From: Armatimonadota bacterium
GTDB lineage: Bacteria > Armatimonadota > SYMT01
NCBI GenBank assembly: GCA_041690135.1
Contig: JAWLHY010000005.1
Coordinates: 340,106 to 404,105, forward strand
Length of the DNA stretch: 64,000 nt
Direction of reading: 5' to 3'
In this document: one piece after another, positions 10,968 through 64,000 of the stretch
How positions within the stretch are numbered: the first letter of the stretch is position 1
Layout of the letters: each line of letters opens with the position of its first letter
Made by a program: the position numbers and the translations under genes
Notes under the pieces: model-generated
The model's input: only the letters and a program-made list of their open reading frames with translations
What the model was told of the DNA's origin: nothing
Databases searched by the model: none

Positions 10968-10974
10968 CTCGAAA

Positions 10975-11286
10975 ATGTCCCAGAAGTCATCCACCTTTAT
11001 CCAGGCGACTCGTGAGCGCGAGACGTGGCTGCCCTCGACCCTGGAAAGGGAACAGGGGAATGCGAACGACGCCGAACCACTGATCGCCACCGCGGCCCTG
11101 CTGCGGGGCGTGATGGAGTCGATCCCCGTGCCTGAAGAGGCCGAGGAGCAGTCGCGGGCGGCGGCCGTGGCGCACATGCAGCGGATGTTGATCGAGCGCG
11201 GGCGAAGCACCCAGGCCCAGGCTCCGTGGTATCTCCGCCTCGGACACTTCATGCGCTACGTTTTCACCCTCGGGCGCAGGCGGTGA
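10975..11286 (+). CDS. Hypothetical protein, possible cognate anti-sigma factor
   Basis: 103-aa ORF starting 8 nt after the ECF sigma stop (operon position typical of anti-sigma factors). No recognisable motif, no TM segment. Confidence 0.35.
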   Translation: MSQKSSTFIQATRERETWLPSTLEREQGNANDAEPLIATAALLRGVMESIPVPEEAEEQSRAAAVAHMQRMLIERGRSTQAQAPWYLRLGHFMRYVFTLGRRR

Positions 11287-11293
11287 TAGACGC

Positions 11294-12190: not shown

Positions 12191-12416
12191 GTCGGGGCCG
12201 AGGCGGGCGAGACGCCCGCCCCACTCCACCCCTCACCTCACTGGCGGGCGAGACGCCCGCGCTCCTTCCCGCATTGCGGTTCGCGGCGGTAACTGGTAAA
12301 GTTCCCTGCGTAGGGGTCCATTCCGCGGGCGCCGGGCAACCGGCGCCTTTTGCACGCCCCGCCCGAATTCAGGCCAAAACCATCCGGTCGGCCCCAGTCC
12401 ATAGGAGGCAACGGAT

Positions 12417-14420
12417 ATGTCGCGTTTCTACATCACCACCCCGATCTACTACGTCAACGATATCCCGCACATCGGAACCACCTACACGACGGTAGCGGCG
12501 GACATCCTGGCGCGGTTCCATCGGATGCGTGGTGAGGAAGTGCTATTCGCCACGGGGACGGATGAGAACGCCACCAAGGTTGTTCAGGCCGCCGAGCAGC
12601 GAGGTAAGGACCCGCGTACGTTCGTGGACGAGATGGCGGAGAACTTCAAAAAGGCGTGGGCCGACCTGAACATCAACTACGATGTCTTCATCCGGACCAC
12701 CGAAGACCGCCACACCCGCGCCGTGCAGGCCTTCTTTGAGACGGTGCAGCAGCGAGGGGACATTTACAAGGGCCCCTACGAGGGTTGGTACTGCGTCTCC
12801 TGCGAAACGTTCTTCACCGCCGAGGAGGCGCCGGAGGTCAATGGCGAGCGCCGCTGTCCCGACGTGCCCCAGCACGCGCCGCTCAAGCTGGTACAGGAAG
12901 AGAACTACTTCTTTGCGCTTTCCCGCTACGGGGATCGCCTGCTCGAGTGGATCGAGGCGCACCCGGAGTTCCTCCAGCCGGAGTTCCGGAAGAACGAAGT
13001 CATCGCGTTCATCAAGCAGGGGCTCCGGGACGTCTGCATCACCCGCTCCGCCACGAATTGGGGGATCCCGGTTCCCGGCGACCCGTCGCAGGTGGTTTAC
13101 GTCTGGTTCGACGCGCTCATCAACTACATCACGGTCGCCGGGTATCCGGACCGTACCGGGGACCTCGCAAAGTGGTGGCCCGCCGACCTGCACCTGGTGG
13201 GCAAGGACATCTACGTGCGGTTCCACTGCACCCTCTGGCCGGCGATGTTGATGGCGGCGGGGTTGGAGCCTCCCCGGCAGGTGTTCGGGCACGGCTTCTG
13301 GATGAGCGAGGGGATCAAGATCTCCAAGACTCTCGGCAACATGATCGAGCCGCTAAAGCTGGTGAATGCGCTGGCGGAGATCGTCGGTGCCCGGCGGGAG
13401 ATCGCGGTCGATGCCATCCGCTACTACCTGTTTCGGGAGATGCCTTTCGGCGAGGATGGGAATTTCCAGCGCGCCAACCTGCTCCAGCGGTTCAACAGCG
13501 ACCTGGCGAACGACCTGGGGAACGCCCTGAACCGCTCCCTGTCGATGACCCGGCAGAACTTCGAGCTCCGGGTGCCGTCGCCCCAGGAAAGCGAAACACG
13601 ACTGGAAGAACTGGCCCGGGCTACTCATCCGCGGGTGACCGCCGCACTCGAGGCGCTCGATTTTCAGGGGGCTCTAGTGGCCGCGACGGAGTACGTCAGT
13701 GCCATCAACGGCTACCTGGCGGAGCGCGCGCCGTGGATCCTGGCGCGTGAAGGAAAGAGCGAGGAGCTCGGAGGCGTTCTTTATCACGCCCTGGAGGCCC
13801 TCCGGGTGGCTTCCACCTGGTTGGCGCCCTTTATGCCGGAGGCGATGGCGGAGGTGCGCCGCCAGTTGGGCCTGGGTGTGCTGGCTCCGGAGTGGAATTC
13901 GGCGGGGGAATGGGGCCTCCTTCAGCCGGGAGAAGTACTGGAAGAGCCGGCGCCCATCTTCCCGAGGATAGACAAGAAGGTTATGGAAGAAGCACTCAAA
14001 CAACTGGATCAGAAATCCGGCGCGGCGCCGGCCGAGCCGGCGCCTGCGGCGAAGGAGAAGGCAGCCCCCGCACCAGCCGCGGAGCCGGAAGCGCCGGCTA
14101 CGATCAGCATCGACGACTTCATCAAGGTGGAACTCCGTGTCGCGGAGGTCTTGAGCGCCGAGCGGGTACCCAAGTCGGACAAGCTCCTGCACCTGAAGGT
14201 TAGCCTGGGCGATGAGGAGCGTTCCGTGCTTGCCGGGATGGCCGAGTACTACGAGCCGGAGGCGCTGGTCGGCCGGAAAGTGATCATGGTCGCCAACCTG
14301 GCCCCGCGGAAAATGCGCGGCCTGATGTCCGAAGGCATGCTGCTGGCGGCGGAAGCGGACGGGAAGGTGAGCCTGCTCCAGCCGGACCAGGATCTCCCCG
14401 CCGGGGCCCGGATCCGCTAA
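12417..14420 (+). CDS. metG: Methionyl-tRNA synthetase with C-terminal tRNA-binding (EMAP/Trbp111-like) domain
   Basis: FYITTPIYYVNDIPHIGTTYTT (HIGH-type motif), KISKTLGN (KMSKS), Zn knuckle CVSCETF...CPDV. C-terminal ISIDDFIKVELRVAEV...GMLLAA OB-fold tRNA-binding domain. Confidence 0.95.
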   Translation: MSRFYITTPIYYVNDIPHIGTTYTTVAADILARFHRMRGEEVLFATGTDENATKVVQAAEQRGKDPRTFVDEMAENFKKAWADLNINYDVFIRTTEDRHTRAVQAFFETVQQRGDIYKGPYEGWYCVSCETFFTAEEAPEVNGERRCPDVPQHAPLKLVQEENYFFALSRYGDRLLEWIEAHPEFLQPEFRKNEVIAFIKQGLRDVCITRSATNWGIPVPGDPSQVVYVWFDALINYITVAGYPDRTGDLAKWWPADLHLVGKDIYVRFHCTLWPAMLMAAGLEPPRQVFGHGFWMSEGIKISKTLGNMIEPLKLVNALAEIVGARREIAVDAIRYYLFREMPFGEDGNFQRANLLQRFNSDLANDLGNALNRSLSMTRQNFELRVPSPQESETRLEELARATHPRVTAALEALDFQGALVAATEYVSAINGYLAERAPWILAREGKSEELGGVLYHALEALRVASTWLAPFMPEAMAEVRRQLGLGVLAPEWNSAGEWGLLQPGEVLEEPAPIFPRIDKKVMEEALKQLDQKSGAAPAEPAPAAKEKAAPAPAAEPEAPATISIDDFIKVELRVAEVLSAERVPKSDKLLHLKVSLGDEERSVLAGMAEYYEPEALVGRKVIMVANLAPRKMRGLMSEGMLLAAEADGKVSLLQPDQDLPAGARIR

Positions 14421-14516
14421 GGGACCGGATACTCACCACGGAGACACGGAGAAGGACACGGAGCGCCACGGAGTTTGGGGTCGCGAGTTAGAGGCGTCTG
14501 GTAATCGAGGACAAGT

Positions 14517-14551
14517 GAGGATCCTCGGCGGTTCCTTTGCCGAGGATCCTC
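14517..14551. terminator. Bidirectional stem-loop between convergent metG and alcohol dehydrogenase genes
   Basis: Perfect 12-nt inverted repeat GAGGATCCTCGG (N11) CCGAGGATCCTC located ~100 nt after the metG stop and ~170 nt after the stop of the minus-strand ADH gene. Confidence 0.5.
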
Positions 14552-14724
14552 AGGAATTATTCGCGGACGGCGCCGGTTCCACGCGGATTCCGCTTGCTTT
14601 GCTCGCGGCCTCCCCAGGGCACGGATGCCGCGTCTCTCGTCGCAGCTGCGGACAGCGCTAAAACGCCTGGCCACAAGCCAGCGCAAATCTGGTTCCAACC
14701 TGCGGAGCGACTTTCCCCAACCGC

Positions 14725-15930
14725 TCAGTACGCGGCTCGAAGAATCTGTTCGATGTCGTCAACCGTCGCCTGCCGTGGGTTGACCCGTAGGAGGCGCTGG
14801 AAGGCACTGGAGGCCTCCGCAAACCCGCGGAGTTGCTCCTCCCGCACGCCGATATCGCGGAGCCGTTCCGGAATACCGACCTCGCGCCGGAGGTTCCGGA
14901 CGGCTTCAATCGCGGCATCGGCCGCCGCTTCGGGGGTTTTGCCGCGAGTGTCCGCGCCCAGGATCTCGGCGATGCGCCCCATCGTCTCGATCCGCTCGGG
15001 CTTGTTGAACTCCATCACATAGGGGAGCAGCAGGCCATTGCCCCGGCCGTGCGGGCAGTGCGCCGCGGTGCCGATGGGGAACTCCAGGGCGTGGACCAGC
15101 GCCACCCCGATGTTACCGAAGGCGAGCCCCGCCAGCAGGGAGGCCAGGTGCATCCCCTCCCTCGCGGCGAGGTTGCTTCCCTCTTTCACCGCCGTGGGCA
15201 GGTGCTGCCCCACCAGGTGGATGGCCTTCTCCGCCAGGTACTCGCCCAGCGGATGGCGGCCCTGGTAGATCGTCACCTCTCCGGGCGGCAGCGGGAACGT
15301 CTCATTGTCCACCGCGGTGTAGGCTTCGATGGCGTGGGTCAAGGCGTCGATGCCGCTGTCGGCGGTCACGCTCGGCGGGCAGGATAGGGTCAACAATGGG
15401 TCGACGATGGCCACCAGGGGGCGAAGGTAGTTGCTCAGGACCCCGAACTTCACGTTCCGATCGGTGTCTTTGAGCACCGTGGCCGCGGAGACCTCGGAGC
15501 CGGTGCCCGCCGTGGTGCTGATGGCGATCAGCGGCGCGATCGGTCCGGGGATCTTGCTATCCCCCATGTAATCGCCGGGGTGCCCGCCATGGGCCATCAG
15601 GACCGCCACGATCTTCGCGAGGTCCATGTTGCTGCCGCCGCCAAGCCCGATCACCACGTCCGGTTGGGTCTCCGCGGCCAGCGCCCGGCATTCCAGCGCG
15701 GCACGGATGGTCGGTTCCGGTTCTCCACCGTCGTAGAGCGTTACGGCCACTCCGGCAGTCTCCAGCGAGTCCCGGATCGGATCGGCCAGGCCTGCGCCGA
15801 GGAGCACCGGGTCGGTGATCAACAGGGCTCGTGTCGCTCCCTGTGAGCGCGCGATCTCGCCGGTCTGGCCGGCCGCGTGCGCCCCAAACACAATCCGCCC
15901 GGCACTCTGAAAACTCCAGATGGTTCGCAC
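14725..15930 (-). CDS. Iron-containing alcohol dehydrogenase (Fe-ADH family)
   Basis: GGGSNMDLAKIVAV, GTGSEVS, and the His-rich metal site HALE...H are typical of group III Fe-ADH. Confidence 0.85.
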   Translation of the reverse strand: MRTIWSFQSAGRIVFGAHAAGQTGEIARSQGATRALLITDPVLLGAGLADPIRDSLETAGVAVTLYDGGEPEPTIRAALECRALAAETQPDVVIGLGGGSNMDLAKIVAVLMAHGGHPGDYMGDSKIPGPIAPLIAISTTAGTGSEVSAATVLKDTDRNVKFGVLSNYLRPLVAIVDPLLTLSCPPSVTADSGIDALTHAIEAYTAVDNETFPLPPGEVTIYQGRHPLGEYLAEKAIHLVGQHLPTAVKEGSNLAAREGMHLASLLAGLAFGNIGVALVHALEFPIGTAAHCPHGRGNGLLLPYVMEFNKPERIETMGRIAEILGADTRGKTPEAAADAAIEAVRNLRREVGIPERLRDIGVREEQLRGFAEASSAFQRLLRVNPRQATVDDIEQILRAAY

Positions 15931-50972: not shown

Positions 50973-53777
50973 TCATGTGGGCAATGCGCCCGGCGCGAGA
51001 AGCCAATTCCAGTCCGTCTGGGTGAAGGAACCAGTGCGGAACCGTTCTCGCAGAGCGTGGACGTCGGGAGCGAGGTTGGGGACCGCTTCCTCTGCGGCGA
51101 CCGCTTCGGCGTGGGGCATGGCGTCGGCGGCGAGGTCTGCGAGCGTCAGCACAGGAAGGCTACAGGTACCGCTGCGTACGAGCTGCTGCACGGCAGTGAT
51201 GACTGCAATCTCCTGGGGCAGCTCGGCATGGAGGTTGCGTGCGAGGAAACGGCCGCCGACCTCAGGAGCGTTTACGGCGCCAGCGGAGCGGAGCGGAACC
51301 GTGCCGTCTCCGCGAGTGTTGGCGGTGCCAAATAGGTTGGCGACGGTGGGGTGCCGTTGGCTGACGACCAGGTAGGCACGCGTCAGCAGCGGACTGCCGC
51401 TGATCTTGCCCTTCAGCGCGCGGCTGCGCTTGAGGTGCAACTCGGAGGGCGCCAACTGTGGATCCGGCCAGCCGTTGGTGCGGTAGAGGGGGTGCGCGTC
51501 CCCGAAAACGGCGGGGTCTGGCAGCATGTCGAGCAGGCCGGAGAGCGAGCAGGCCATCAGCTGGAAATCGCGAACGGTATCGTTCCGTGATAGGAACGCG
51601 AGCTTCTTGAGGGTATCGTAGGTGCCGAGCACGGCCTGCATCGACGCATAGCTCCCGTGCAGGGGGGAGCCCAGCAGCACTGCGCTCTCCACCCGATCGC
51701 TCCATTCCCGGTGCCGGGCCGCGTAGAGGCAGGCCACCAGACCACCCATCGAGTGGGCGACGAGCGCGAACCTTTTGTGCGGACGCTGGGCGGCGAGTTC
51801 CTCGATGAACCGGTGGAGACTGTCCGCCAGTGCTTCGATCGGCTTGCGCCAATCGTAGGAGAACTCGTTGACTACGAACCCGGCGTTGCGCCAAGTTCGG
51901 GAGGCGCGGGCGTAGGTGAGCCGGAGCATGCCGTCCGGCTTGAGCACCTGCCCCGAGGTGGCTTCGCGCACGCCGTCCGGATCGAGCGAGAGGCGCTCGG
52001 CCAGATCGCCCGCGAAGAACGCCAGGGGGTTGATCCAGAGCCGCCCGCCCATGCCGGCGGTGCGGGCTAGGTGCCCGCCGAGGATGCCGTGGATGAAGAC
52101 GATCTCCGGCAGCGCGGGATCGGCGCGGCGCCCGAAGAGCCCTGACAGGAACGATTCCTCCAGGGCGACGGACTCCACCGTGGGCTCCCCGAGCGATACC
52201 AGGGTCAGTTCCCGGATGAGGGCATCAGCCTCCGCGGGCGGCAGCACCGCGTAGAGGCGCCGGGCCGTTTCGGCGGGATGGTCCTGCAGCTCGGCGGCGA
52301 TGGCCGCATCATCGGTCTGCTCGTACCAGGCGGTGGGCGAGACCGCTTCCGGCGCTGCTGCCGGGGTCAGCCCGAGGGACGCCGGCGCGGGCAACGGAGG
52401 ACCGGGCGCTGCTGGGGCCGGCGTGCCAGTCTCGCTCGCCGCCGGGTTGGAGCGGGCCGCGCGCCGCGTGTAGACGGTGGGACCGGAGCCGCGGTAGGTG
52501 TCCCAGTAACGGAGCCATTCCGGATCCGGCTGCTCCGGCGCGTCTTCCGGCACAGGGCTGAACCGGAAGCCCAGCGCCCGCAGGTAGGGATCTCGAGCCA
52601 GCTCCCAGGCGGGCACCGCCCAGTTGGTGAGCAGGTACTGCCCCGCGAAGTGGAGGCCGATCACCTCTCCCGTGAGCAGATCGAGGATCGCAGAGCCGGA
52701 GTTACCGGTTAGAGTGGAGCAGTCGTGCGTGAGCGCCTCCACCTCCGGGCGATTGAGGGGCGCAAAGCGGGAGAGCGGCTCCCGGCCGCCGTTCCGCACC
52801 ATGCCCAGGAGCCCGGGGAGGAGCCGCTTGCGGCCGTAGATTCCCCGGAACTCCCGGTCCTGGACCTCTACGTTGGAGAAGGGGTTCCGGTGCGGATAGC
52901 CCACGGTGACCACGTAGCGGCTCTCCAGCGGGCCGGCGGGGCGGACGGAGGCGAGGGTCAACGGGCGGGGCATCGCAGCCCCTAGCGGCGCCCGCACGGC
53001 CAGGACCGCGGCGTCCCAGTATGGGTGGATAAGGGCGACGTCTTCCACCTCCAGCAGCACTGGCGCCGGCTCCGGGGTGCCGGACGGGTGGACCTCACGG
53101 CGGGTGTCCAGAGCCGCCGCTCCGGGCCGGTAGGAGAGCGTACCGCTGCCGGGGTGCCCATGACCCGACGCGAACAGCTGCGCGACGTGCCGATTCGTCA
53201 GCAGCAGCCCCTCCCCCACGAAGAAGGCGGTGCCGCCGAACGGACGGAGCGGGTCCTGCGGCAGTTCCACGCGGCCAATGGCGGGGAGGGCGGCCTCCAG
53301 CAGTTCCCGCTCCCGGGGGCGGCCGAGGAATTCGAAAGGGAAGGCCGGCGTCTGGTACGTACCGCCGGTGACGTCGATGACGGGGCGCTCTCCGGGCAGG
53401 ATCACCTCTTCCAGCACTAACGCTTCCCGGGCGGTGAGTGGGTCCCCGTTCACCAGCTTGGTGACTACGTTCTGCGCGGTGCGGATCGTCTCGTCGGTAA
53501 GCCCTGGCGATGGGAGGGTGAAGGACTCGAAGGCCGCTTCCTCCCGGGCAGCCTGCTGCTGCCGGGACGTCAGCATCCGGGCGACGCTTTCCTCATTGAT
53601 CGGCCGCGCGGGTGGGAGCAGAGCCGGCGCGCTTCCTTCCGCCGGGATCCCCTCTTCTTCTCCCCGCTGGAATCGCTCGTGGAAGGCCTGCGCGGGCCGA
53701 TCCGAAGGGATTTTGCGTACCTGCTCGAAGTAGCGCAGGAGACGCTGCTGGTGGGCAGGAGAGTACGGATCGCTCAT
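50973..53777 (-). CDS. Multidomain putative effector: N-terminal helical adaptor, trypsin-like (S1) serine peptidase domain, Pro/Ala-rich linker, C-terminal alpha/beta-hydrolase (LCAT/PGAP1-like lipase) domain
   Basis: Start set at ATG 53777 (MSDPYSP..., RBS AAAGGA); the ORF track start is 53876. Peptidase region GGTAFFVGEGLLLTNRHV (His) ... TGNSGSAILD (Ser). Lipase region ...FALVAHSMGGLVACLYA (GxSxG nucleophile elbow). Confidence 0.7.
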   Translation of the reverse strand: MSDPYSPAHQQRLLRYFEQVRKIPSDRPAQAFHERFQRGEEEGIPAEGSAPALLPPARPINEESVARMLTSRQQQAAREEAAFESFTLPSPGLTDETIRTAQNVVTKLVNGDPLTAREALVLEEVILPGERPVIDVTGGTYQTPAFPFEFLGRPRERELLEAALPAIGRVELPQDPLRPFGGTAFFVGEGLLLTNRHVAQLFASGHGHPGSGTLSYRPGAAALDTRREVHPSGTPEPAPVLLEVEDVALIHPYWDAAVLAVRAPLGAAMPRPLTLASVRPAGPLESRYVVTVGYPHRNPFSNVEVQDREFRGIYGRKRLLPGLLGMVRNGGREPLSRFAPLNRPEVEALTHDCSTLTGNSGSAILDLLTGEVIGLHFAGQYLLTNWAVPAWELARDPYLRALGFRFSPVPEDAPEQPDPEWLRYWDTYRGSGPTVYTRRAARSNPAASETGTPAPAAPGPPLPAPASLGLTPAAAPEAVSPTAWYEQTDDAAIAAELQDHPAETARRLYAVLPPAEADALIRELTLVSLGEPTVESVALEESFLSGLFGRRADPALPEIVFIHGILGGHLARTAGMGGRLWINPLAFFAGDLAERLSLDPDGVREATSGQVLKPDGMLRLTYARASRTWRNAGFVVNEFSYDWRKPIEALADSLHRFIEELAAQRPHKRFALVAHSMGGLVACLYAARHREWSDRVESAVLLGSPLHGSYASMQAVLGTYDTLKKLAFLSRNDTVRDFQLMACSLSGLLDMLPDPAVFGDAHPLYRTNGWPDPQLAPSELHLKRSRALKGKISGSPLLTRAYLVVSQRHPTVANLFGTANTRGDGTVPLRSAGAVNAPEVGGRFLARNLHAELPQEIAVITAVQQLVRSGTCSLPVLTLADLAADAMPHAEAVAAEEAVPNLAPDVHALRERFRTGSFTQTDWNWLLAPGALPT

Positions 53778-53926
53778 GGATCTATCCTTTAAGTTACAGG
53801 CGAACCGGCGACCGGGCGTGGGGACGGCCTGAGGCGACCGGCAATGCAGGGAACTTTCTACCGGATGGTTGAACAATAGAGGGTGTCATTCCTCGCTCTG
53901 GGGGTAACGAGGCTGCCCGTATTGAG

Positions 53927-54014
53927 ATGAGTGCCGGTTGAGCCTGCGCCTGGTGAGCGAGCTAGGGGCTACAGGGGGCAAAGCCTGCCTGCGCAGGCTG
54001 GGAGTTCCGGCACT
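53927..54014. promoter_or_regulatory. Long interrupted inverted repeat in the divergent promoter region of the two peptidase genes
   Basis: GAGTGCCGG-TTG-AGCCTGCGC ... GCGCAGGCT-GGGAGTT-CCGGCACTC: two 9-bp arm segments on each side with a ~40-nt central region. Located between divergently transcribed genes 50973..53777(-) and 54342..55526(+). Confidence 0.45.
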
Positions 54015-54341
54015 CAACCAACGGTCTTCCCGAGAGGCGGGTACAAGCATGGTCTATTTGTGCTCGCCAGGACCCCGGACGAGAGATCCAATCGGGAGGC
54101 AGGTACCGGTCTGGCCTGGTGCCGAGATCCCTCCTGCAGTTAGGATGACTCCTTATGGGGGGCGACAATGCCCGGGTACGGTATTTTGTAAGTGGAAGCC
54201 GTTCAGTAGTGTTGCGTTCAGGATAACTGGTCCCGCAAGGTGTGAAATGCGTGAATGCCGTTGTTTGAGACCCACTACGACGAACCGGTTTCTGCTTTCG
54301 GTCAGCAATAGGTCAGCATTCGAACTACCTGACTACCGACT

Positions 54342-55526
54342 ATGCCCACACTCACGCGAGCTCAAGAAGATAACCTGATCCGGATCCTCTCCCGGCATCC
54401 GGATTTCCAGACGGCGGAGGACCGGCTGCGGTTGCTGCTGCAGATCATCCCAACCGCGGCGGACGGGGACGAGACCGCGTACCACGTGAACCTGGGAAAG
54501 GATGCCATCCGGGTCGCGGAGGGATTGCTCGCGCAGCTCAAGTTCGAGGGGGTGGGCCCGGACGGGGTCCACCGCCTGCGGCACATGGTAGCCGGTCTGC
54601 GGGAGAAGGTGCGAGACGAGCGGGACCGGGGACGGCTAGCGGGGATGCTCACCTACCTGGACCAGCACACCCCGGCGGTGGCGCCGCCCCCGCCGCCCCC
54701 GGCGCCGCTCCGCCCGGACCCGCAGCCGCGGCTGGACCCCGCGGACTGGCGGGGCAAGAATTCCGACGCACCGCCGTATGAGAAGGTGGTGCGGGTAAAT
54801 ACGCTGCGGCAGTTCTATCTGCTGGAGCGTGCGGTGCCTGCTTCACGCGGGGTGTTCCGCATCGAGGGACGTCCACCCGGCACGGAAGGCGAGCCGGCGG
54901 CTTCCACCGGCTTCCTCATCGCCCGCGGTGTGGAGACGGCCCCCGGCGGACCAAGGGTGGCGCTAGCGATGACGAACCACCACGTGATCGCCACTCTGGA
55001 AGAGTTCCCCGGTTATGAGTGCTGGTTCAATTACCGGCTTGACCTGGACGGCCGCGAGCCGGTGCCCTCGCCGCAAGGGTTCTGCAAGCTGCAGCCGCTG
55101 CCGCTGGCCGAGTGGTTCTTTACGGACGCGGGGCTGGACGTAACGGTGTTTGCGCTCGACGATGCGGTGGTGCCGGCGAATGCGGTGGCTCTGGGGGTGC
55201 GAGAGGCCCGCCCACTGGAGGGGGCGCGGGTGCCGATCATTCAGCACCCGAACGGGGAGTACCTGCAGATCTCGTTCCAGAGCAACTTCATCGCGTACGC
55301 GAACGACGAGATCCTGCAATACACCACTACTACCCTGCCCGGCTCTTCGGGCTCCCCTGTGTTCAATGAGCGGTTCGAGGTGATCGGGATCCACTCAATG
55401 GGCGGGGACCTGCCCCACCCCGGTCAGCCAGGACTGACTACCCTAATCAACCAGGGCACTTCAATCAAGGCGATCCTGGCGGTTCTGCCGGGGGCTATCC
55501 GTGGGCGGGTTATGGTGCTGGGGTAA
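54342..55526 (+). CDS. Trypsin-like (S1) serine peptidase with N-terminal alpha-helical adaptor (EAD-like) domain
   Basis: N-terminal ~110-aa helical region (EDNLIRILSRHPDFQTAEDRLRLLLQIIP...). Pro-rich linker (PPPPPAPLRPDPQPRLDP). Catalytic domain with LAMTNHHVI (His) and TLPGSSGSPVF (Ser). Confidence 0.75.
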   Translation: MPTLTRAQEDNLIRILSRHPDFQTAEDRLRLLLQIIPTAADGDETAYHVNLGKDAIRVAEGLLAQLKFEGVGPDGVHRLRHMVAGLREKVRDERDRGRLAGMLTYLDQHTPAVAPPPPPPAPLRPDPQPRLDPADWRGKNSDAPPYEKVVRVNTLRQFYLLERAVPASRGVFRIEGRPPGTEGEPAASTGFLIARGVETAPGGPRVALAMTNHHVIATLEEFPGYECWFNYRLDLDGREPVPSPQGFCKLQPLPLAEWFFTDAGLDVTVFALDDAVVPANAVALGVREARPLEGARVPIIQHPNGEYLQISFQSNFIAYANDEILQYTTTTLPGSSGSPVFNERFEVIGIHSMGGDLPHPGQPGLTTLINQGTSIKAILAVLPGAIRGRVMVLG

Positions 55527-55728
55527 GGTTGTGGGCTCGGGCAGAGCGGCCCGACGGTCGTAGTCTTGGCGCCGAACTTCGCGAATCGCTCGGATGTCAT
55601 ACCGTTCGTATGGCAGAGGGACAGGAAGCCAGGAAGCCAAGAGTGATGCCAAGCGACTGAACTCGCGGCTATAAAACGCGAAGCGAGCCTTCGCAGGGTG
55701 TAGCACCGACCTATCCACCCGCTCGCCC

Positions 55729-57408
55729 TTGAGTGGAGGGGGAGGTGTTAGCCCGGCTGACGGACAATTAACACTTGGGAGACAGCGGCTAATCCGAATA
55801 AGCCGCGACGAGGCACTGTCGTCTCCGGTACTGGTCTTGAGTTCGAACGTGCTCTTTCCACTGTTACAACCGGCCGACGAACGGCTGCTCCGCGACTATC
55901 TGCTCTCCGTGCTGGCACGAACCGGAGACGAGCCGGAGCGGCGCCGGGCCTTGTGCAAATACTTGCCGGACTCGGTAGCCCAGCTGCCGGCGGAGGCGTG
56001 GCTGACCGAGAGGCGGCTGCGACTGGACCGATCCCACGCTGAGATCCTGGAGCAGTTCTTCGAAGCGCTTCAGAGCCATCCGCCGGCGCTGTTGGCGCAC
56101 TTGGAAGTGCTGAGCCAGAGCGTGAAGGACGGGCCGACACGCGAGGAGTTCGCGCGGATGCGGGACGGGCTGCGGTTGGCCCTCGATCCGCTGACGGAGG
56201 CGCAGCGCCTTCTGGACGCCGCCGCTTCGGCGGACCCGGACGTCCTTCCGGACGCACTGGCCGCCGGTCTCTGGAAGGCGCTGGGGAAGCGCGAGTCGGG
56301 TACGTTCTGGCAGGCGGTGGCGCTGCTGGTGCCGCATCCCGCCCGCACTTACCAGGAGTCGGGACAGGAAGTGCTGCGCCTGCCGCTAGTGGTGGCGCTG
56401 GAGCGAACCGCGGCCCGGGTGGGCTTGTCCGGGCCAGACCGGACCCAGTATGGCGAACTCGTCCAGCAGGCGGTGGAGCGTCTTTACCCGCCGCCTCCCA
56501 AAGCCCCGGAGGCAGACCAAACAGCGCCGGGGCCTACCGCGCCGGCCTTCGATCCGATCACCGTGTACGTGCTGGCACTCGGCTCTAACACCCTGAGCAC
56601 GGCGGACACGCGCTACCGGCTGTGGTACACGGATCCGCAGGGAGACCGCGGCGCCCGAGACCTGACCGGCACCCTGAAGGAACTGCAGGCCGGCTTCTCC
56701 GCCTGGATCAGTGACGTCCTGTTCGAGTGGTCCGGCGATACCCCACTGGTGGAGTTTGTGCTGCCCGAGGAGTGCCTGGAGTGGGACGTGGAGCGTTGGG
56801 AAGTGGCCCTCAACCCGCGCAACCCAGCCACCGGAAAGCCGATTGGCACGGCGTTTCCGGTGGTGCTGCGGAACTGGGGGCGGTACGAAGCTCGGCCGCA
56901 CATCAAGCGCCTGGAGCGCCGCTGCAAGGAGTTGAAGGGCACCGGCACCCTGTACTGGTGCCACGAGCCGGCTCATGAGCCGGGCTTGCCGGTCTACCTG
57001 GACCACTCGGACTGCCGGACGGTGCTCTACCTGGGCGCGGGCTACCCCTTGCAGCGGACCGGCGGTAGAAACCTCTGGCTGGCGGTACTCCGGAACGGGG
57101 TTCCAGTAGTGATCTGGCGCCGCACCGCCGGCAGCGGAGCGGTGCCCATCCCGGACCAACTGGAGAAGCTACTCCATCAGGCACAGCGTCTCCACCCGTT
57201 CAACGAGCTGCCAAGTAAGATCAAGGACTGGCGCAGCCTGGTGATCCAGGAGCCACCGCAGTACGACGACACGGCGGATGAGGTCTCCCTGCTCTGGGAG
57301 AACCCCTACCGGCTCCCCGCCGCCCCACCCCTGCCCGAGGGGGCACCCACCGCACCCGACGAAGCTCGCCCGGCGCCGGCGCCCACCAGCACGGGGCGGA
57401 TCGATTGA
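55729..57408 (+). CDS. VMAP-like protein (vWA-MoxR-associated protein position) with N-terminal EAD-like helical motif
   Basis: 559-aa ORF immediately upstream of and overlapping (4 nt) the MoxR ATPase gene. There is no in-frame ATG near the 5' end, so TTG 55729 or a downstream GTG is the likely start. The N-terminus DERLLRDYLLSVLARTGDEPERRRAL resembles the N-termini of both peptidase effectors. No enzymatic motif recognised. Confidence 0.55.
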   Translation: MSGGGGVSPADGQLTLGRQRLIRISRDEALSSPVLVLSSNVLFPLLQPADERLLRDYLLSVLARTGDEPERRRALCKYLPDSVAQLPAEAWLTERRLRLDRSHAEILEQFFEALQSHPPALLAHLEVLSQSVKDGPTREEFARMRDGLRLALDPLTEAQRLLDAAASADPDVLPDALAAGLWKALGKRESGTFWQAVALLVPHPARTYQESGQEVLRLPLVVALERTAARVGLSGPDRTQYGELVQQAVERLYPPPPKAPEADQTAPGPTAPAFDPITVYVLALGSNTLSTADTRYRLWYTDPQGDRGARDLTGTLKELQAGFSAWISDVLFEWSGDTPLVEFVLPEECLEWDVERWEVALNPRNPATGKPIGTAFPVVLRNWGRYEARPHIKRLERRCKELKGTGTLYWCHEPAHEPGLPVYLDHSDCRTVLYLGAGYPLQRTGGRNLWLAVLRNGVPVVIWRRTAGSGAVPIPDQLEKLLHQAQRLHPFNELPSKIKDWRSLVIQEPPQYDDTADEVSLLWENPYRLPAAPPLPEGAPTAPDEARPAPAPTSTGRID

Positions 57409-57425
57409 AAACACAGGTATCTCCC

Positions 57426-58574
57426 ATGCAGCTCGAGCCCCCTACAGCTACTCCCAATCCGGACGTGCCCGCCGACTGGTGGGCATTCCACGGTGACCGC
57501 AACGCCGATGAGAAGATCGCGGCGGAGCGACGGTCCCGGCTGGGCCCCGCCCCGCCCTGGCGGCCGTCCCGGGCCGTGCCGGACAACACCCTCTACACGC
57601 CCCGTCCGGAGCCGCTGGGAGAGACCTATCGCTGCGGGAAGGCGGTGATCGAGATGGTCAACGCCGCTCTCGTGCTGCGGCGGCCGCTGTTGATCACCGG
57701 TGAGCCGGGCAGCGGGAAGTCGTCCCTGGCGTATGCCGTGGCGCGGGAACTGGGCCTGGGCCGCGTGCTGCGGTGGAACATTACCAGCCGCACCACCCTG
57801 CGGGACGGTCTGTACAGCTACGATGCCCTCGGGCGGTTGCAGGCTTCCGACCTGGGCGGCGACAGTGACCAGGTGGCGGAGATCGGGCAGTTCATCACCC
57901 TGGGGCCGCTGGGCACCGCGCTGCTGCCCTGGTCCACACCGCGGGTGCTGCTGATCGATGAGATCGATAAGAGCGACGTGGACCTCCCGAACGACCTGCT
58001 GCATGTGTTCGAAGAGGGCGAGTTCGAGATCCCGGAACTGGTGCGGCATCCGGATCCGGACGACCGGGGCGTGCGGGTGTGGCCGGACAAGGCGGACCGT
58101 CCGCCCCTGGACCGAACGAACCCGGTGCCGCCGGAGCAGTACCAGGTAACGGTGCACCGGGGCCGGGTGCAGTGCAGCCAGTTCCCCTTCGTGGTGCTGA
58201 CCAGCAACGCCGAGCGAGAGTTTCCGCCGGCGTTCCTGCGCCGGTGCCTGCGCCTGCGGCTGCCCCGACCCGGCCGCGACCAACTGAAGGAGATCGTGCG
58301 GGCCCACTTCTCCAATCCGGAGCGGCCGGTGCCCTCCGAGACGCAGCTCGACGAGCTGATCAGCCGGTTTCTCAAGCGGCGGGACGTGGGCGCCCTGGCC
58401 AACGACCAGCTGCTGCAGGCGCTGTTCCTGCGGCTGCGGGGCGGGGAGGCGATCGACAGCAACCCGGAAGATGACCTCCGGAACCTGATCAACCGGCTGC
58501 TCCATCCCCTGAACCAGCCGGAGGCGGCGGTGGAGCCGGACGAGGACGCGGATGACGGCTGCGGGCGCGGATAA
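57426..58574 (+). CDS. MoxR-family AAA+ ATPase
   Basis: Walker A LLITGEPGSGKSSLAYAVA. Walker B VLLIDEIDKSD. Sensor-1 VVLTSNAEREF. Arg finger PPAFLRRCLRLRL. ATG 57426 is chosen; a TTG at 57405 is the alternative. Confidence 0.85.
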   Translation: MQLEPPTATPNPDVPADWWAFHGDRNADEKIAAERRSRLGPAPPWRPSRAVPDNTLYTPRPEPLGETYRCGKAVIEMVNAALVLRRPLLITGEPGSGKSSLAYAVARELGLGRVLRWNITSRTTLRDGLYSYDALGRLQASDLGGDSDQVAEIGQFITLGPLGTALLPWSTPRVLLIDEIDKSDVDLPNDLLHVFEEGEFEIPELVRHPDPDDRGVRVWPDKADRPPLDRTNPVPPEQYQVTVHRGRVQCSQFPFVVLTSNAEREFPPAFLRRCLRLRLPRPGRDQLKEIVRAHFSNPERPVPSETQLDELISRFLKRRDVGALANDQLLQALFLRLRGGEAIDSNPEDDLRNLINRLLHPLNQPEAAVEPDEDADDGCGRG

Positions 58575-61500
58575 GTCGCCATCGGCGCCGGAATCCCTGA
58601 TCCAGTTGCTCGACTGCCTGAGCGGGCTGGAAACCCGCCTGCTCGCCGCGGAATTGGCGGACGTGCTCTGGCTGGCCCAGCGGCTGCCGGAGCGGCAGGC
58701 ACCTTCCCGGTCCGGGGAGGCGGCCGAGGCACCGGCAACGGAGGAGACGGAGAGCCCCCGGGATTCGGCCCGGTCCGAGGCCGGATCGCCCGACGGCACG
58801 CCTGCCCACACGGACGCCGACTCGGGTACTAACGCGGAGGTCGGACAGGAGAGGGAACGTCCACCGGGATCTGTCCCACCGACGGACGCCGGGCAGCCGG
58901 AGGACGAGCGGATCCGACTATTTCCAGGCCGTCCCAACTCCCCCGAGCAGACGGGCGCGGGCGAGATGCCTTCTTCCTCATTCCAGGGCACGGCAGCCCG
59001 CGCCCTCCCCCGGACCCGGCAGATCCTGCGGGCCCTCCGCCCACTCGCGGGCCGGGTCCCCTCGCCCCGGCGGGACGAGCTGGAGGTGGACGTCGAGGCA
59101 ACGCTCGAGCGGATTACGGAGGGGCTGCTGGCTGCCCGCGCTCGTTCGGAAGCCAGTGGGGCGGCGCGCCGCAACCGTCCCATTCCCCGCACGCCCGTGT
59201 TGCGGCCGGCCGAGGTGCGGCCCTACGAGCTGCACCTGGTGGTGGATACCAGCGCCAGCATGGCGGTGTGGGAGGAGGCTGCGGGAGAGCTGGCACAGCT
59301 GCTGGTGGGCCTGGGCAGCTTCTCGGACGTGCGGGTCTGGTACCTAGACACCCAGTCTGGCGGGGAGCCGCCGCTCTACGCGGGAGTCCGGTGCGGCGGG
59401 GGGACCCAACGCGGGGAGCGGCGGTCCGGTGCCGAGCTGCGGGGCGGGGGCGGCAGCATTCCGGGTGCCGGGGCGCGGCTGGTGCTGGTGCTGACTGACG
59501 GCCTGGGGCCAGCATGGTGGGATGGCCGGGCGCTGGACCTGCTGGCCTCCTGGGCGGACACGGGCCGGGTAACGCTGCTCCAGACGCTGCCGGAGCGGCT
59601 CTGGGGCCGCGCGGTGCACGGTGTACCTCGCTGGCTGGTGGGCGCCCACGAGGCCGGTGTCCCGAACCGGCGGCTGCTCACGGCTCCCCGGCCGGGCGTC
59701 CGCAGCGCGGCGCCGGCGAACGCCCCCCGGTATGATCGAGACCCGGAACGAGTTTACGTTCCGGTGGTCGCGCTAGACCCGGACCCGCTGCACACCTGGG
59801 CGCGACTGATGACCGGACGCGGCGGGGTGTGGCTGCCGGCGTTTCGCATGCGCCTGAAGTCCTCACCGGCCCAAACCGTCGCGCCTCTCGAGCCCGTAGA
59901 CCCGGAGGAGCCGGAAACCGAGGCGGCGCGGGCAGCCCGGATGGTACGCGAGTTCCGGGCTGGCGCCCCCTGGGAGGCACGCCGCCTGGCGGAACTGTTC
60001 GCGGCCGTGGGCACCCTCACCATACCGGTGATGCGCGCCATCCAGGATGCGATGGTGGCCGGCTCCGGGCTGGAGGCACTGGCGGAGGTGCTGGCCAGCG
60101 GCCTGCTGGAAGCCCGCGAAGCTGCGGGCGGGACGGTCTACGCTTTCCGTGGAGAGCAGCACGGGATAGCCCTGCGCCAGCGGCTGTGGCAGCGCGCAAG
60201 CGTTCCGGACACGCTGCGGGCCATGCAGACGGCACTGAACGAGCTCCAGCGGAGCGTGGGGGATTTTCTGGCCGGAATGAACGCCGAAGGTGCAGCCCAG
60301 CCGCTCCAGGTGCTTGATCCACAGGGCCTCCAGCGGCTGTCGGCGGACCACGCCCTGGCGCCGTTCGCGGCGGTGGCGGCGGAGTACCTGGAGTCGCTGG
60401 GCGGGCAGTACGTGCGGAGCGCCCGGACGTGGCAGACAGGCATCGCGTTACCGCCGCATCAAGGAGACGCCGGCGATCCCACGTCGTATTCGCTGAACGA
60501 TCTGATCGCGTTGTCCCGGAACCTGGACGGACAGGGCCCGTGGCTGCAGGGGAAGGTACCGCCCATCCATCTCCTCACCGCAGCGGAGAAGCTCGGGGAG
60601 CCGATCAGCGCGGTAATGCACCGGCTGGGCCGGTTTGAAGCCCGGTTCGAGCTGGAGCTGCCGGTGCTCGACGACCTCGAGCTGACGGCACTTGATGAGC
60701 CGCTGCCTAACGAAGCCGATCGGATCGTGCTGTCCCACGGTCTGGACGGCCAGACGCCCTGGCTGCACGGGCGGGTCGGGAAAGAACACCTCCTGGCAGC
60801 GGCCGTCCAACTGCGAGAGCCCGTGGTGACCGTGCGGCAGCGACTGGAGCGGTTCGCGGCCCTGTTCGAGCTAGAGCTCCCGGCACCCGGCGACCCCTCC
60901 CCCACCCAACCCCTGCGGGTCTTCGTCTCGGCGTCGTTCCGGTATTGCCACCAGGAACGGCGGGCGATCTTGGCGGAGTTGGCCCGGCGCCCGGAGATCG
61001 TGGACACCAGTTGGGAAGCACTGCCGGCGGACCAGCGGGACCGGCAGCACCGGCTGCCGGTGGTGGCCGCATGCGATCTCTTCCTGCTGCTCCCGGGGGA
61101 GGGGCCCAGCGCGGGGCTGGAGGCGGAATACGCCGCAGCATTGGAGCACGGGAAGACCTGCCTCGCATACTTCCACCGGGACGCGGCACCGCTGGACGAA
61201 ACCACGCGGGAGTTCTGGAAGAGACTCCGGGACCGGCACGGCGTTCGGACTTATGGCAGCTCGGAAGAACTGATCCGGCAGGTCTCACTCGACCTCGATT
61301 TTGAGCTGGCGCGGCTGACCGGGAAAGTTCAGGAGCACCCGATGGAGGTGGTGGTCCTGTTCTCGGATGGGCAATGCGCGGCTCTGCCGGTAGGCGTCGG
61401 CGTGTTGGACGCGGCGTTCCACGTGGACCCCGAGCTAGGGCTGCGGATGAACGGCGCGCGCGTGAACGGCGAGGCGGTGCCGCTGAGCTATCAACTCCGT

Positions 61501-64000
61501 CAACGGGATCAGGTGGAGCTGGTCACGACCCCCCACAGTTATCCGTCCCGGGAGTGGCTCGACTGGGTTCAGACCGAGCGGGCGCGGCACGCCATCCGGG
61601 ACTGGCTGCGCCGCTACCAGGTGTATGTGGCTGCCGGCGAGATTCCCGACATCCCGGGCCTACAGTTTGAGTGGGCGGTCCGGTCAGACATCCCCGAGAG
61701 AGAGCGAGCAGCAGTCCTCCGCGAATGCGGCCTCTTCATAGCCACATTCCGGCCGCCTGGGTTTGACTACTGGGAAGGGATCCGGGACGGAGATGTGTCG
61801 GTGGTCCGTGGCGCAGTAGGACAGCACCTTCCAGAGTTCGCTCTGGCCCGGCGGTTGGGACTCCGCTGCCTCATCTACCTGTATGACGATGTGGACGGCC
61901 GCAAACCCGCGGGAATGCTCACAGCGGAAACACTCTATCGCTGCGCTAATGTCTCAGAGTTGCGTGAGGCCATGCGCGGCGACTTCCAGGCGGCTGTGGC
62001 AAACCAATGGCCGCTAGAGGGGATTCGAGACGGACGAGAGCCCTTGCTCCGCGACCTGTACCAAATGCTAGGGCTACCCCCACTACGCAGTGATCTGGAG
62101 ACCTTCGAGCTCTCGAGGTTCGCTGGCGAGCGAGGATGGTTAGTCCAGGACTTGAACCGTCCAAATCTGGCGATGCTGGTGTCCGCCGTGCGGGGTTTGC
62201 AGAAGGCACCCGCGGCCGTATGGGCGTTGCCACTGCCGCGAACGAACGTCGAGAATGAACTTCTAAACCGCCTGGCAGGCTGGCTGCGCCAGGAACCGGC
62301 AAGCTCTCTGCGCGCGCTGCAGCGTTTTTGGGGAATGTGCGGTCGGGCGGCGCAGCAACCCACTGACGGGCGGGCGGTGGCGGGTTACCTTCTAGCGTTG
62401 GTGTGGTTGGGGCAACTAGTAGAGGGGAACTTTGGGAGGGCCGATCCCGCTCTGGTACTGTCCCCGCTGAATCCCCCCAACCTGCGCGATTTCCTCGTTC
62501 TCGTGGGGGGACGGCAGCCGGCGGCGCTCGATTTCCGCATTGCCGTGGATGGTGTGACAGTGGCGCACCTCCCCCGCCTTCGTCTCGACACACCCGAATC
62601 GGAGGTGAGGCGGCAGGCGCTGGAGGTTCCCGAGGTCGTTGAGCGTATCGTGAACCGAAACGTCCGCTCTGTCGAGGTGAGCTTCGGGACTGGGGTGACA
62701 ATTTCCACCGAGCCGGCATCCCACCCATCATTGACTGGATGCCGTGTCCTCTGGTGTGATCCCAAGCAAGACCGTGTCAATAGCAGGGAGATAAGCTGGC
62801 TCCAGCAACACGGCGCCGTGATTGCCCGCGTACCGCCCAGCCACGTTCAGCTAGCATTAGGGAGTGGGCTTCCATACGACGCGCTGATTACGAGCATGGG
62901 CGGCGTGTTGCCAGAGGAAGATAGTCTGGGCCTTCATGTGGTTAGGATCGCGAGGCGGCTACGGCCGGAACTCCCGGTGATCCTGTTTACCCACCGCACC
63001 GTGCCATCGGTTCAGGAGGCCAGAGAGGCGGGAGTTGCGCTGATCACCCCCAAAGTTGAGGTGATCCTGCGGGAACTCCAAACGCTGGTCGACCGCCGAA
63101 CCCCGACCCTGCCCGAGGATTCGGAGGGGTTCTACACGGAGCGCGGTCTTTGCGACGTGATCGACCGGTACCAACTCCGGAGTGGGCGCCAGGAAGCCGA
63201 CGCGGTGCTCACCCTGCTGCTGCTGTTCCGGACGGAGACGCAGCGGACGTGGTTGGCAACCACCCACCGGCATCTCTACATCTTGCTGGATGATGCGGAG
63301 ACGCGCGCTACGGGACCGGATACGGAGCGCGTGATCCAGGAAGAACTGACGCTGAAGGAGGCCCAGCCCGTCTTCAGCAGCGAAGCACGGGAGTGGCTGG
63401 AAACGCGTCTTCTCCACATCGGCCGGGCGCGGAACTGGCATTACACGCTCTCCCTCCACCCGCGTGCGCAGGACCTCGAGGTGACTGTCCGCGAGTTGAT
63501 TCTTAATGCGAGACACGGTGATCTTAACCCAACATACCGGCAGCTCTTGCTGCTGGCTGCCGAATACGAGGCCATCCAAGCGACACAAGAGGCCGGTGGC
63601 GAGCGCTCACGCCGTTCGGTATCGGTCTACAAGAGGATGCAGCGATCCAGCCAGGCAGCTGACAGGGCACTGCTTTCCCGCCTAGCTACCAGCGAGAGCC
63701 CGGGCGAACGGTTGGCGGCGGTAGCCATCCTTCAGGAGAAGCCAGCTTCGGAGTATCTGCACTGGCTAGCTGCCCGCGTGCATGAGGACCAGGCGTTTAT
63801 CGGGTATCAGGCCGCGCTGGCCCTAACCACGGCGGCCGAGGAACTCAATTCGGTCTACCTGGAAGAGGTAGGCACAAGCATCCGCTCGGCTCGGGATACA
63901 CTGACCTCAGAGGTGAAGGCCGGCACTGACACGGATCGCTACCGCGTACTCGAGCGAGGACTCGAGGTCCTCGTACAGCGCGAGCGGCAGGATGAGGCGC
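58552..64000 (+). CDS. Giant vWA-domain protein (>1816 aa, 3' end outside window) with DUF4062/TIR-like, TGS, receiver-like and HEAT-like modules; vWA partner of the MoxR ATPase
   Basis: A frame-1 ORF opens after TGA 58510-12. The first ATG is 58552, overlapping the MoxR stop by 23 nt. I found no stop codon through position 64000; it is absent from the ORF track because it is open-ended. MIDAS-type vWA motif LHLVVDTSASMAVW at ~59233-59274. DUF4062-like RVFVSASFRYCHQERRAILAEL (~60913). TGS-like VVVLFSDGQCAALPVGVGVLDAAFHV...ARVNGEAVPLSYQLRQRDQVELVT (~61342-61530). CheY-like CRVLWCDPKQD...PVILFTH (~62740-63000). HEAT-like C-terminal repeats. Confidence 0.75.
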   Translation, partial: MTAAGADKSPSAPESLIQLLDCLSGLETRLLAAELADVLWLAQRLPERQAPSRSGEAAEAPATEETESPRDSARSEAGSPDGTPAHTDADSGTNAEVGQERERPPGSVPPTDAGQPEDERIRLFPGRPNSPEQTGAGEMPSSSFQGTAARALPRTRQILRALRPLAGRVPSPRRDELEVDVEATLERITEGLLAARARSEASGAARRNRPIPRTPVLRPAEVRPYELHLVVDTSASMAVWEEAAGELAQLLVGLGSFSDVRVWYLDTQSGGEPPLYAGVRCGGGTQRGERRSGAELRGGGGSIPGAGARLVLVLTDGLGPAWWDGRALDLLASWADTGRVTLLQTLPERLWGRAVHGVPRWLVGAHEAGVPNRRLLTAPRPGVRSAAPANAPRYDRDPERVYVPVVALDPDPLHTWARLMTGRGGVWLPAFRMRLKSSPAQTVAPLEPVDPEEPETEAARAARMVREFRAGAPWEARRLAELFAAVGTLTIPVMRAIQDAMVAGSGLEALAEVLASGLLEAREAAGGTVYAFRGEQHGIALRQRLWQRASVPDTLRAMQTALNELQRSVGDFLAGMNAEGAAQPLQVLDPQGLQRLSADHALAPFAAVAAEYLESLGGQYVRSARTWQTGIALPPHQGDAGDPTSYSLNDLIALSRNLDGQGPWLQGKVPPIHLLTAAEKLGEPISAVMHRLGRFEARFELELPVLDDLELTALDEPLPNEADRIVLSHGLDGQTPWLHGRVGKEHLLAAAVQLREPVVTVRQRLERFAALFELELPAPGDPSPTQPLRVFVSASFRYCHQERRAILAELARRPEIVDTSWEALPADQRDRQHRLPVVAACDLFLLLPGEGPSAGLEAEYAAALEHGKTCLAYFHRDAAPLDETTREFWKRLRDRHGVRTYGSSEELIRQVSLDLDFELARLTGKVQEHPMEVVVLFSDGQCAALPVGVGVLDAAFHVDPELGLRMNGARVNGEAVPLSYQLRQRDQVELVTTPHSYPSREWLDWVQTERARHAIRDWLRRYQVYVAAGEIPDIPGLQFEWAVRSDIPERERAAVLRECGLFIATFRPPGFDYWEGIRDGDVSVVRGAVGQHLPEFALARRLGLRCLIYLYDDVDGRKPAGMLTAETLYRCANVSELREAMRGDFQAAVANQWPLEGIRDGREPLLRDLYQMLGLPPLRSDLETFELSRFAGERGWLVQDLNRPNLAMLVSAVRGLQKAPAAVWALPLPRTNVENELLNRLAGWLRQEPASSLRALQRFWGMCGRAAQQPTDGRAVAGYLLALVWLGQLVEGNFGRADPALVLSPLNPPNLRDFLVLVGGRQPAALDFRIAVDGVTVAHLPRLRLDTPESEVRRQALEVPEVVERIVNRNVRSVEVSFGTGVTISTEPASHPSLTGCRVLWCDPKQDRVNSREISWLQQHGAVIARVPPSHVQLALGSGLPYDALITSMGGVLPEEDSLGLHVVRIARRLRPELPVILFTHRTVPSVQEAREAGVALITPKVEVILRELQTLVDRRTPTLPEDSEGFYTERGLCDVIDRYQLRSGRQEADAVLTLLLLFRTETQRTWLATTHRHLYILLDDAETRATGPDTERVIQEELTLKEAQPVFSSEAREWLETRLLHIGRARNWHYTLSLHPRAQDLEVTVRELILNARHGDLNPTYRQLLLLAAEYEAIQATQEAGGERSRRSVSVYKRMQRSSQAADRALLSRLATSESPGERLAAVAILQEKPASEYLHWLAARVHEDQAFIGYQAALALTTAAEELNSVYLEEVGTSIRSARDTLTSEVKAGTDTDRYRVLERGLEVLVQRERQDEA

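Follow-up and report, generated by a model that had tools for sequence, protein, structure and literature searches.

An EAD8-trypsin, a VMAP with a probable divergent EAD8-like domain and an adaptor-less trypsin-lipase at an Armatimonadota locus

How are proteases encoded beside the core of a bacterial conflict system coupled to that core? According to the effector-associated domain (EAD) principle, a core component and an effector or signaling enzyme, the latter usually the product of an adjacent gene, each carry a copy of the same EAD, and a homotypic interaction between the copies has been proposed (Kaur, Burroughs, Iyer & Aravind 2020, eLife 9:e52696; PMC7159879). The question is raised by a locus in a 64,000-nt stretch of DNA from an Armatimonadota bacterium (GenBank assembly GCA_041690135.1, contig JAWLHY010000005.1, positions 340,106 to 404,105 of the forward strand), hereafter the window. 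Five genes, A to E, were called in it by frame analysis based on GC content at third codon positions (GC3) and by a listing of open reading frames (ORFs). The locus is a ternary conflict system of the VMAP (vWA-MoxR associated protein) type, in the order B, an EAD8-trypsin; C, the VMAP; D, a MoxR-type AAA+ ATPase; and E, a presumed von Willebrand factor A (vWA)-effector protein. A trypsin-lipase, A, is encoded next to this series.

An earlier note on this DNA had proposed that A, B and C begin with similar Leu/Arg-rich helical segments that act as a common adaptor. The three peptides quoted there are encoded exactly where the note placed them, each about 10 residues from the N-terminus after correction of the gene starts. 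As far as sequence comparison can tell, the proposal is partly confirmed: it holds for two of the three proteins, B and C.

EAD8-type domains of proteins B and C

By homology, protein B is an EAD8-trypsin and a clear member of the EAD8 family (PF19961). Pfam detected Trypsin_2 with 58.4 bits and, just below the cut-off of 27 bits, EAD8 with 23.6-25.8 bits (E 2e-5 to 9e-5). Full-length B retrieved two orthologs (54-57% identity) and many EAD8+Trypsin_2 proteins aligning over 94-99% of its length, and the majority of its 120 best homologs were annotated with this architecture. An independent EAD8 hidden Markov model (HMM), built from 58 EAD8-trypsin N-termini with the B family excluded and compared with 2000 composition-preserving shuffles, gave B a score of 34.8 bits, which no shuffle reached. 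In a profile-profile comparison with hhalign, the B family matched EAD8 with a probability of 97.6% (E 3.7e-12). The catalytic motifs are intact in B, as they are in A. The N-terminal domain of B alone had no matches in an index of 5.8 billion proteins, and an exact look-up of B returned no recorded identical protein. A six-frame HMM scan for further EAD8 domains in the window detected B only, which rules out an extra copy elsewhere in it.

Protein C contains a VMAP-C domain (PF20028; 93.1 bits against a cut-off of 27), which marks it as the third component of a VMAP ternary system. We conclude with moderate confidence that its first ~110 residues form a divergent EAD8-like domain, detectable only by profile-profile comparison. 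A HMMER search with C against 1.84 billion representatives found just two relatives that have its N-terminal and middle regions in common: P0122, the VMAP of a syntenic locus (L001), and P0123, which shows 41% identity to C in the first ~118 residues (E 4e-24). These three sequences constitute the C-family profile. Compared in hhalign with a profile of B and 26 EAD8 domains, it produced an alignment of 98 collinear columns (residues 4-106 against 6-109) with a probability of 84% and an E value of 7.3e-6. The score was 35.5, against a mean of 11.1 (standard deviation 2.1, maximum 21.3) in 200 column shuffles and 8.5-8.8 for reversed profiles; the control profiles of EAD1 and EAD11 aligned over just 12-13 columns (E 0.11-0.18). 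The register of the alignment pairs the motif quoted earlier from C with the one quoted from B, and the similarity reaches far past these motifs to take in nearly all of the two domains. A scan of the genome contigs with C alone confirmed nothing.

The relative P0123 scored 18.2 bits on the independent EAD8 HMM, in N-terminal register, and none of the 2000 shuffles reached this value. It is a stand-alone protein of 237 amino acids (aa), encoded at 582-1295 of a contig of just 2.2 kb (L002), and consists of the EAD8-like domain and the C-family middle region without VMAP-C. Possible readings are a truncated VMAP, a decoy and an adaptor.

Structure models of B(1-112) and C(1-119) each contain six helices (Table 1), and the hhalign register pairs every helix of one model with a helix of the other; the motifs quoted from the two proteins are helices 1-2. 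The pairing described by the EAD principle, a domain on the third component of the core and its counterpart on an effector encoded by the adjacent gene, is probably present in B and C and is absent from A.

The trypsin-lipase A and its relatives

Judged by its sequence, protein A does not belong to the EAD8 family, and its N-terminal helix lies in a leader specific to its own family. Pfam found Trypsin_2 (47.9 bits) and LCAT (40.5 bits) in A, and neither A nor any of its 116 homologs was found to carry an EAD; in these homologs the trypsin is fused to LCAT-like hydrolase, Endonuclease_NS (NucA), Lipase_3 or PLD domains. Residues H197/D255/S360 (TNRHV, WDAA, GNSGS) as well as S676 (HSMGG), D824 and H850 are invariant in an alignment of 22 family members. 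The conserved leader comprises an N-terminal helix (Q..LL.YLR.V), an 'LES' motif, a second helix and the sequence LEAIxLPxxRPV. In most members it occupies 56-81 residues before the trypsin domain and is therefore too short for the ~100-residue, six-helix EAD8. The helix is equally conserved in members that lie far from any VMAP/MoxR system.

Searches for a relationship between A and the B and C domains were negative. On the EAD8 HMM, A scored at most 0.2 bits, a value reached by 215-305 of the 2000 shuffles. The A-family profile gave hhalign probabilities of 0.8-2.5% with EAD8, over 11-42 columns, and 0.3-0.9% with the C N-terminus; A-family matches 11-20 columns long scored 13.6-15.9, values that fall within the spread of the column shuffles (mean 11.1, maximum 21.3). 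With the full-length A-family profile the probabilities against EAD8 or the C N-terminus were 0.3-0.8%, and the matches were located elsewhere in the protein. In Smith-Waterman comparisons of the N-terminal regions (~110-280 residues), no pair exceeded its shuffles (p = 0.67 for A-B, 0.48 for A-C and 0.13 for B-C). When the short motifs alone were compared, p was about 0.009 for B-C, 0.05 (marginal) for A-C and 0.9 for A-B; only B-C stands out, and a three-way motif is thus unsupported at the residue level.

The mutual similarity that the earlier note saw among the three N-termini is borne out for B and C, with their 98 collinear columns, and breaks down for A, whose scores lie inside the shuffle range. 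The profile-profile comparison that it had suggested as a check divides the proteins in the same way (84%, E 7.3e-6 for B-C; 0.3-2.5% for the A family). Its appeal to EAD logic likewise applies to B and C, which carry EAD8-type N-terminal domains, a probable one in C, and are encoded by adjacent genes, and not to A, which has a family-specific leader without EAD8 similarity. The further claim, that a common adaptor docks both proteases to the MoxR/vWA machinery, goes beyond the evidence, as profile comparison relates the A leader neither to EAD8 nor to the N-terminus of C.

We examined the genomic settings of both proteases. The syntenic locus L001 contains, in this order, the B ortholog, the VMAP, MoxR and a vWA-like gene, and it has no A-type gene. 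An alpha/beta hydrolase of ~300 aa (weak Lipase_3, DUF900) is encoded directly upstream of the EAD8-trypsin in L001 (953-1864) and on the contig of P0003 (672-1571); a lipase-like gene therefore recurs at the position of A, in a different form, in two loci orthologous to the B-C operon. The hydrolase of L001, which has 303 aa, was considered as an ortholog of A and rejected, since it gave no tblastn match to A.

The closest homolog of A is P0149 (59% identity), found in loci L007/L008 from two independent metagenomes. Its gene is co-directional with, and ends 22 nt before, an operon encoding an EAD1+EAD8-like trypsin, a VMAP, MoxR and a giant WD40 protein. The N-terminus of this VMAP scored 12.7 bits on the EAD8 HMM, which none of the 2000 shuffles reached. 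The trypsin, a homolog of B (L007 12225-13682), has tandem adaptors before its peptidase domain, EAD1 (66 bits) and then an EAD8-like domain (22 bits in Pfam, 26-29 bits with our own HMM). A and P0149 have in common an extra insertion of ~60 residues between the N-terminal helix and 'LES' (window positions 53600-53700, minus strand; residues ~27-90 of A). This insertion is absent from other family members, and A and P0149 are the only members found beside VMAP/MoxR operons.

A wider sample comprised 80 A-like loci from species-representative genomes, each examined within 10 kb and analyzed with HMM positive controls. Four of these loci (L010/L021, L011, L013 and L026; for example L010 8001-15335) have a four-gene cassette in common: an A-like trypsin-lipase, a protein of ~350 aa (weak AAA_22), a STAND-like NTPase of ~900 aa with TPR, and an EAD5-Trypsin_2 protein. 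Pfam detected no EAD5 on the putative core proteins of the cassette. The A-type proteins are mobile effector-proteases, repeatedly located beside an EAD-trypsin and an NTPase core and never EAD-bearing themselves. Their recurrence beside EAD-trypsins with differing NTPase cores suggests that proteolysis, not an adaptor, provides the coupling. A more speculative thought, to which we give little credence, is that the trypsin-effector leader is an undescribed coupling element, such as a pro-peptide or a short docking motif, which would let EAD-trypsins on differing NTPase cores (VMAP/MoxR here, STAND-like elsewhere) recognize and activate adaptor-less effector-proteases; the insertion in A and P0149 might then adapt the leader to the VMAP core.

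Proposed mechanism and alternative explanations

On the published EAD model and by analogy with bacterial CARD systems, the EAD8 domain of B would dock on the EAD8-like domain of C and so place the protease on the sensor/switch complex of VMAP and MoxR. MoxR-driven remodeling or oligomerization could then activate B by proximity. Active B would cleave downstream targets, plausibly the leader or linker of A, and this cleavage may release or activate the lipase, which would kill the cell. The most likely link of A to the system is of this kind, with A a substrate or partner downstream of the EAD-trypsin in a proteolytic cascade; homotypic adaptor docking of A is unlikely. The nearest experimental parallel is LypABC of Caulobacter (Banks et al. 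2026, PMC13236601), in which the trypsin LypA binds, through its CARD, to the N-terminal domain of the ATPase LypB. LypC, a CARD-less trypsin-endonuclease, bound neither LypA nor LypB in two-hybrid assays, and its peptidase activity is needed (PMC13236601). A second experimental parallel is provided by the gasdermin-type CARD systems of Lysobacter and Pedobacter (Wein et al. 2023, PMC10312443).

The whole reading, a VMAP-type locus in which B and C carry EAD8-type, Death-like adaptors and A is an adaptor-less cascade partner, has in our estimate a probability of roughly two in three. Several observations count against it, some concerning A and others the N-terminus of C. Gene A is divergently transcribed, on the strand opposite to B-E, and none of the 80 A-like loci had VMAP-C, EAD8 or this kind of MoxR within 10 kb, so that the link of A to this system would be lineage-specific. 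Both facts agree with the alternative that A is an independent neighbor, either a self-contained trypsin-lipase toxin/effector or part of another system, and functionally unlinked to B-E. The same alternative would account for L001, with its unrelated hydrolase in place of an A-type gene, and for the other contexts in which most family members are found. It nevertheless appears unlikely, about one chance in a few, because P0149 stands co-directionally 22 nt from an EAD-trypsin/VMAP/MoxR/vWA operon in two independent metagenomes, because family members repeatedly occur together with an NTPase and a second trypsin that bears an EAD, and because the pattern matches published NucA-trypsin and CARD-NLR three-gene systems with a trypsin-fused effector.

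The other adverse points concern C. Pfam did not call EAD8 in C or any EAD in P0122 and P0123. On the independent EAD8 HMM, C alone reached 1.7 bits (p about 0.08) and P0122 had no score, and the reciprocal comparison, a three-sequence C-family HMM against single EAD8, EAD1, EAD11 and A-family N-termini, was weak and non-discriminating. The hhalign probability was 84%, not above 95%, and fell to 15-18% in separate comparisons with B and with the remaining EAD8 sequences. The C family matched the B family with an E value of 0.0018 and other EAD8 sequences with 0.0013, indicating no special closeness of B and C; adjacent EAD pairs are usually closer to each other than to other copies (PMC7159879), and B-C departs from this rule. 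A Foldseek search of the PDB with the C model gave no significant match (best E about 1). Most helical EADs are considered parallel to the Death superfamily (PMC8195603), and given this Foldseek result a Death-like fold for the modeled B and C domains is plausible, if weakly supported.

If these negatives are taken at face value, the N-terminus of C could be a variable helical VMAP region whose resemblance to EAD8 is compositional, with the true EAD8 partner of B encoded elsewhere in the genome; VMAP middle regions are diverse all-alpha modules, and EAD copies may sit elsewhere in a genome (PMC7159879). We regard this explanation as improbable. Column-shuffled profiles, which keep composition, and reversed profiles never came near the observed score, the collinear alignment starts from the N-terminus of both proteins, and every helix of one model has its counterpart in the other. 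Moreover, P0123 and the unrelated VMAP of L007 each beat 2000 of 2000 shuffles, in N-terminal register, on an HMM built without them, and the six-frame scan of the window revealed no EAD8 other than that of B. That all three proteins carry one short helical adaptor motif, by which A and B are both recruited homotypically to the VMAP, is very improbable: the segments are all Leu/Arg-rich and ~10 residues from the N-terminus, the A-C motif pair is marginally above shuffles, hhalign aligns helix 1 of the A family approximately with that of the C family (columns 8-27 in both) and A-type proteins recur beside EAD-trypsin systems, but the A-family matches are short and inside the shuffle range, the leader is too short in most members and its helix equally conserved with no VMAP nearby, and in LypABC the adaptor-less trypsin-effector binds neither of the other components.

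Relation to known systems and organization of the locus

We compared the locus with previously described systems. As in the VMAP ternary systems (PMC7159879), a VMAP-C protein is combined with a MoxR AAA+ ATPase whose N-terminus has the W-rich motif, and a large protein with C-terminal modules of the variable kind is encoded downstream. Here, however, the EAD8 of the VMAP is missed by Pfam, the adjacent copies are not mutual closest relatives, the vWA domain of E is unconfirmed by sequence searches, and an adaptor-less trypsin-lipase is attached to the locus. In loci with PF19961 such as L005, an EAD8-trypsin is likewise encoded directly upstream of an EAD8-bearing third component, followed by MoxR, but the third component is iSTAND there and VMAP here. 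L005 itself (10001-15446) is a textbook EAD8 system, containing EAD8-Trypsin_2, EAD8-WD40, EAD8-iSTAND, MoxR and a CoxE-type vWA protein.

The trypsin of A is closest to the fusions of the NucA-trypsin 'System 3', which consists of trypsin-Endonuclease_NS and EAD1-trypsin paralogs (Kaur et al. 2020), with E values of 1e-45 to 1e-74. In both cases the EAD is on the paralogous trypsin and none is on the effector fusion, whereas the effector of A is an LCAT/PGAP1-like hydrolase instead of NucA and is attached to a VMAP ternary system. The locus is not a CARD-NLR system: its core is VMAP, MoxR and the presumed vWA protein, it has no STAND ATPase and no gasdermin, and sequence similarity to the CARDs of those systems is negligible (5-10% identity). 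The resemblance to them is functional.

The locus is a further instance of the published EAD principle, with two small peculiarities: the probable EAD8 copy of the VMAP is cryptic, and the accompanying trypsin-lipase has no adaptor. The published logic would apply here although the standard Pfam model misses the copy on the core protein, and cryptic, highly divergent EADs on VMAPs may be under-counted. In addition, two modes of attaching proteases can be separated, by an adaptor in B and without one in A, which is probably a cascade substrate. The reading predicts that B(1-112) binds C(1-119) and that A does not, in parallel with the experimental outcome for LypABC.

The coordinates of genes, domains and motifs are given in Table 1. 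The start of A is the ATG at 53777, fixed by an identical NCBI protein (P0148); the longest ORF starts further upstream. For C, an identical NCBI protein of 519 aa (P0121) supports the GTG at 55849, with which the homologous N-termini MFHPLL and MFLPHL align; the longest ORF would begin at a TTG at 55729, 120 nt upstream. Genes C and D overlap by 4 nt, the start of D lying across the stop codon of C. On its flanks the locus has ordinary metabolic genes. PADLOC made no system-level assignment for it, and none of the DefenseFinder type was obtained. A scan of the A-B and B-C intergenic regions for promoters and terminators found nothing above chance.

Table 1. Genes, domains and motifs of the locus in window coordinates, with the structure models of the N-terminal domains (AF2, AlphaFold2; pLDDT, predicted local distance difference test; pTM, predicted template modeling score)
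Feature	Position	Strand	Description
Gene A	50973-53777	-	934 aa; Trypsin_2 + C-terminal LCAT/PGAP1-like alpha/beta hydrolase (lipase) domain
Motif of the earlier note in A, QQRLLRYFEQVRKIPSDRP	53694-53750	-	Residues 11-29; conserved N-terminal helix of the trypsin-lipase family, outside any EAD
Gene B	54342-55526	+	394 aa; EAD8 + Trypsin_2 peptidase
EAD8 domain of B	54348-54665	+	Residues ~3-108
Motif of the earlier note in B	54366-54452	+	Within EAD8, helices 1-2
Gene C	55849-57408	+	519 aa; VMAP
Probable divergent EAD8-like N-terminal domain of C	55858-56199	+	Residues ~4-117
Motif of the earlier note in C	55876-55968	+	Within the EAD8-like domain, helices 1-2
VMAP-C domain of C	56614-57306	+	Pfam PF20028, E 3.3e-26
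Gene D	57405-58574	+	389 aa; MoxR-type AAA+ ATPase
Gene E	58552-63999, beyond window edge	+	>1,800 aa; presumed vWA component with C-terminal effector or signaling modules
AF2 model of C(1-119)			pLDDT 87, pTM 0.78; helices 8-23, 28-37, 48-54, 63-75, 78-91, 95-117
Model of B(1-112)			pLDDT 89, pTM 0.84; helices 6-17, 25-35, 45-48, 55-69, 78-89, 93-108

Pfam assigned AAA and AAA_5 to protein D, and bpMoxR weakly. Its Walker A (GEPGSGKS) and Walker B (LLIDEID) motifs, read directly from the sequence, are both intact, and it is 63% identical to the MoxR of L001. N-terminal WxhapG and PsWRxa motifs are typical of MoxR in VMAP systems (PMC7159879). The first 55 residues of D contain WWAFHG and PPWRPS, the second without the final aromatic residue.

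Two short observations concern the gap between B and C. It measures 322 nt (55527-55848) up to the supported start of C, compared with 75 nt for the equivalent gap of L001 and 136 nt for that of L007. Its sole terminator-like hairpin is on the minus strand (55677-55695).

Protein E is homologous to the gene that follows MoxR, in the same position, in L001 (41%) and L007 (30%), and conserved DTSAS...TDG motifs are present in its presumed vWA region. Pfam and PDB sequence searches, with E alone or as a three-sequence profile, did not detect a vWA domain. Pfam found in E two wHTH-HSP90_Na-assoc domains, TGS, a weak DUF4062 and C-terminal HEAT-like repeats, a set that represents an unusual effector or signaling combination for a vWA component.

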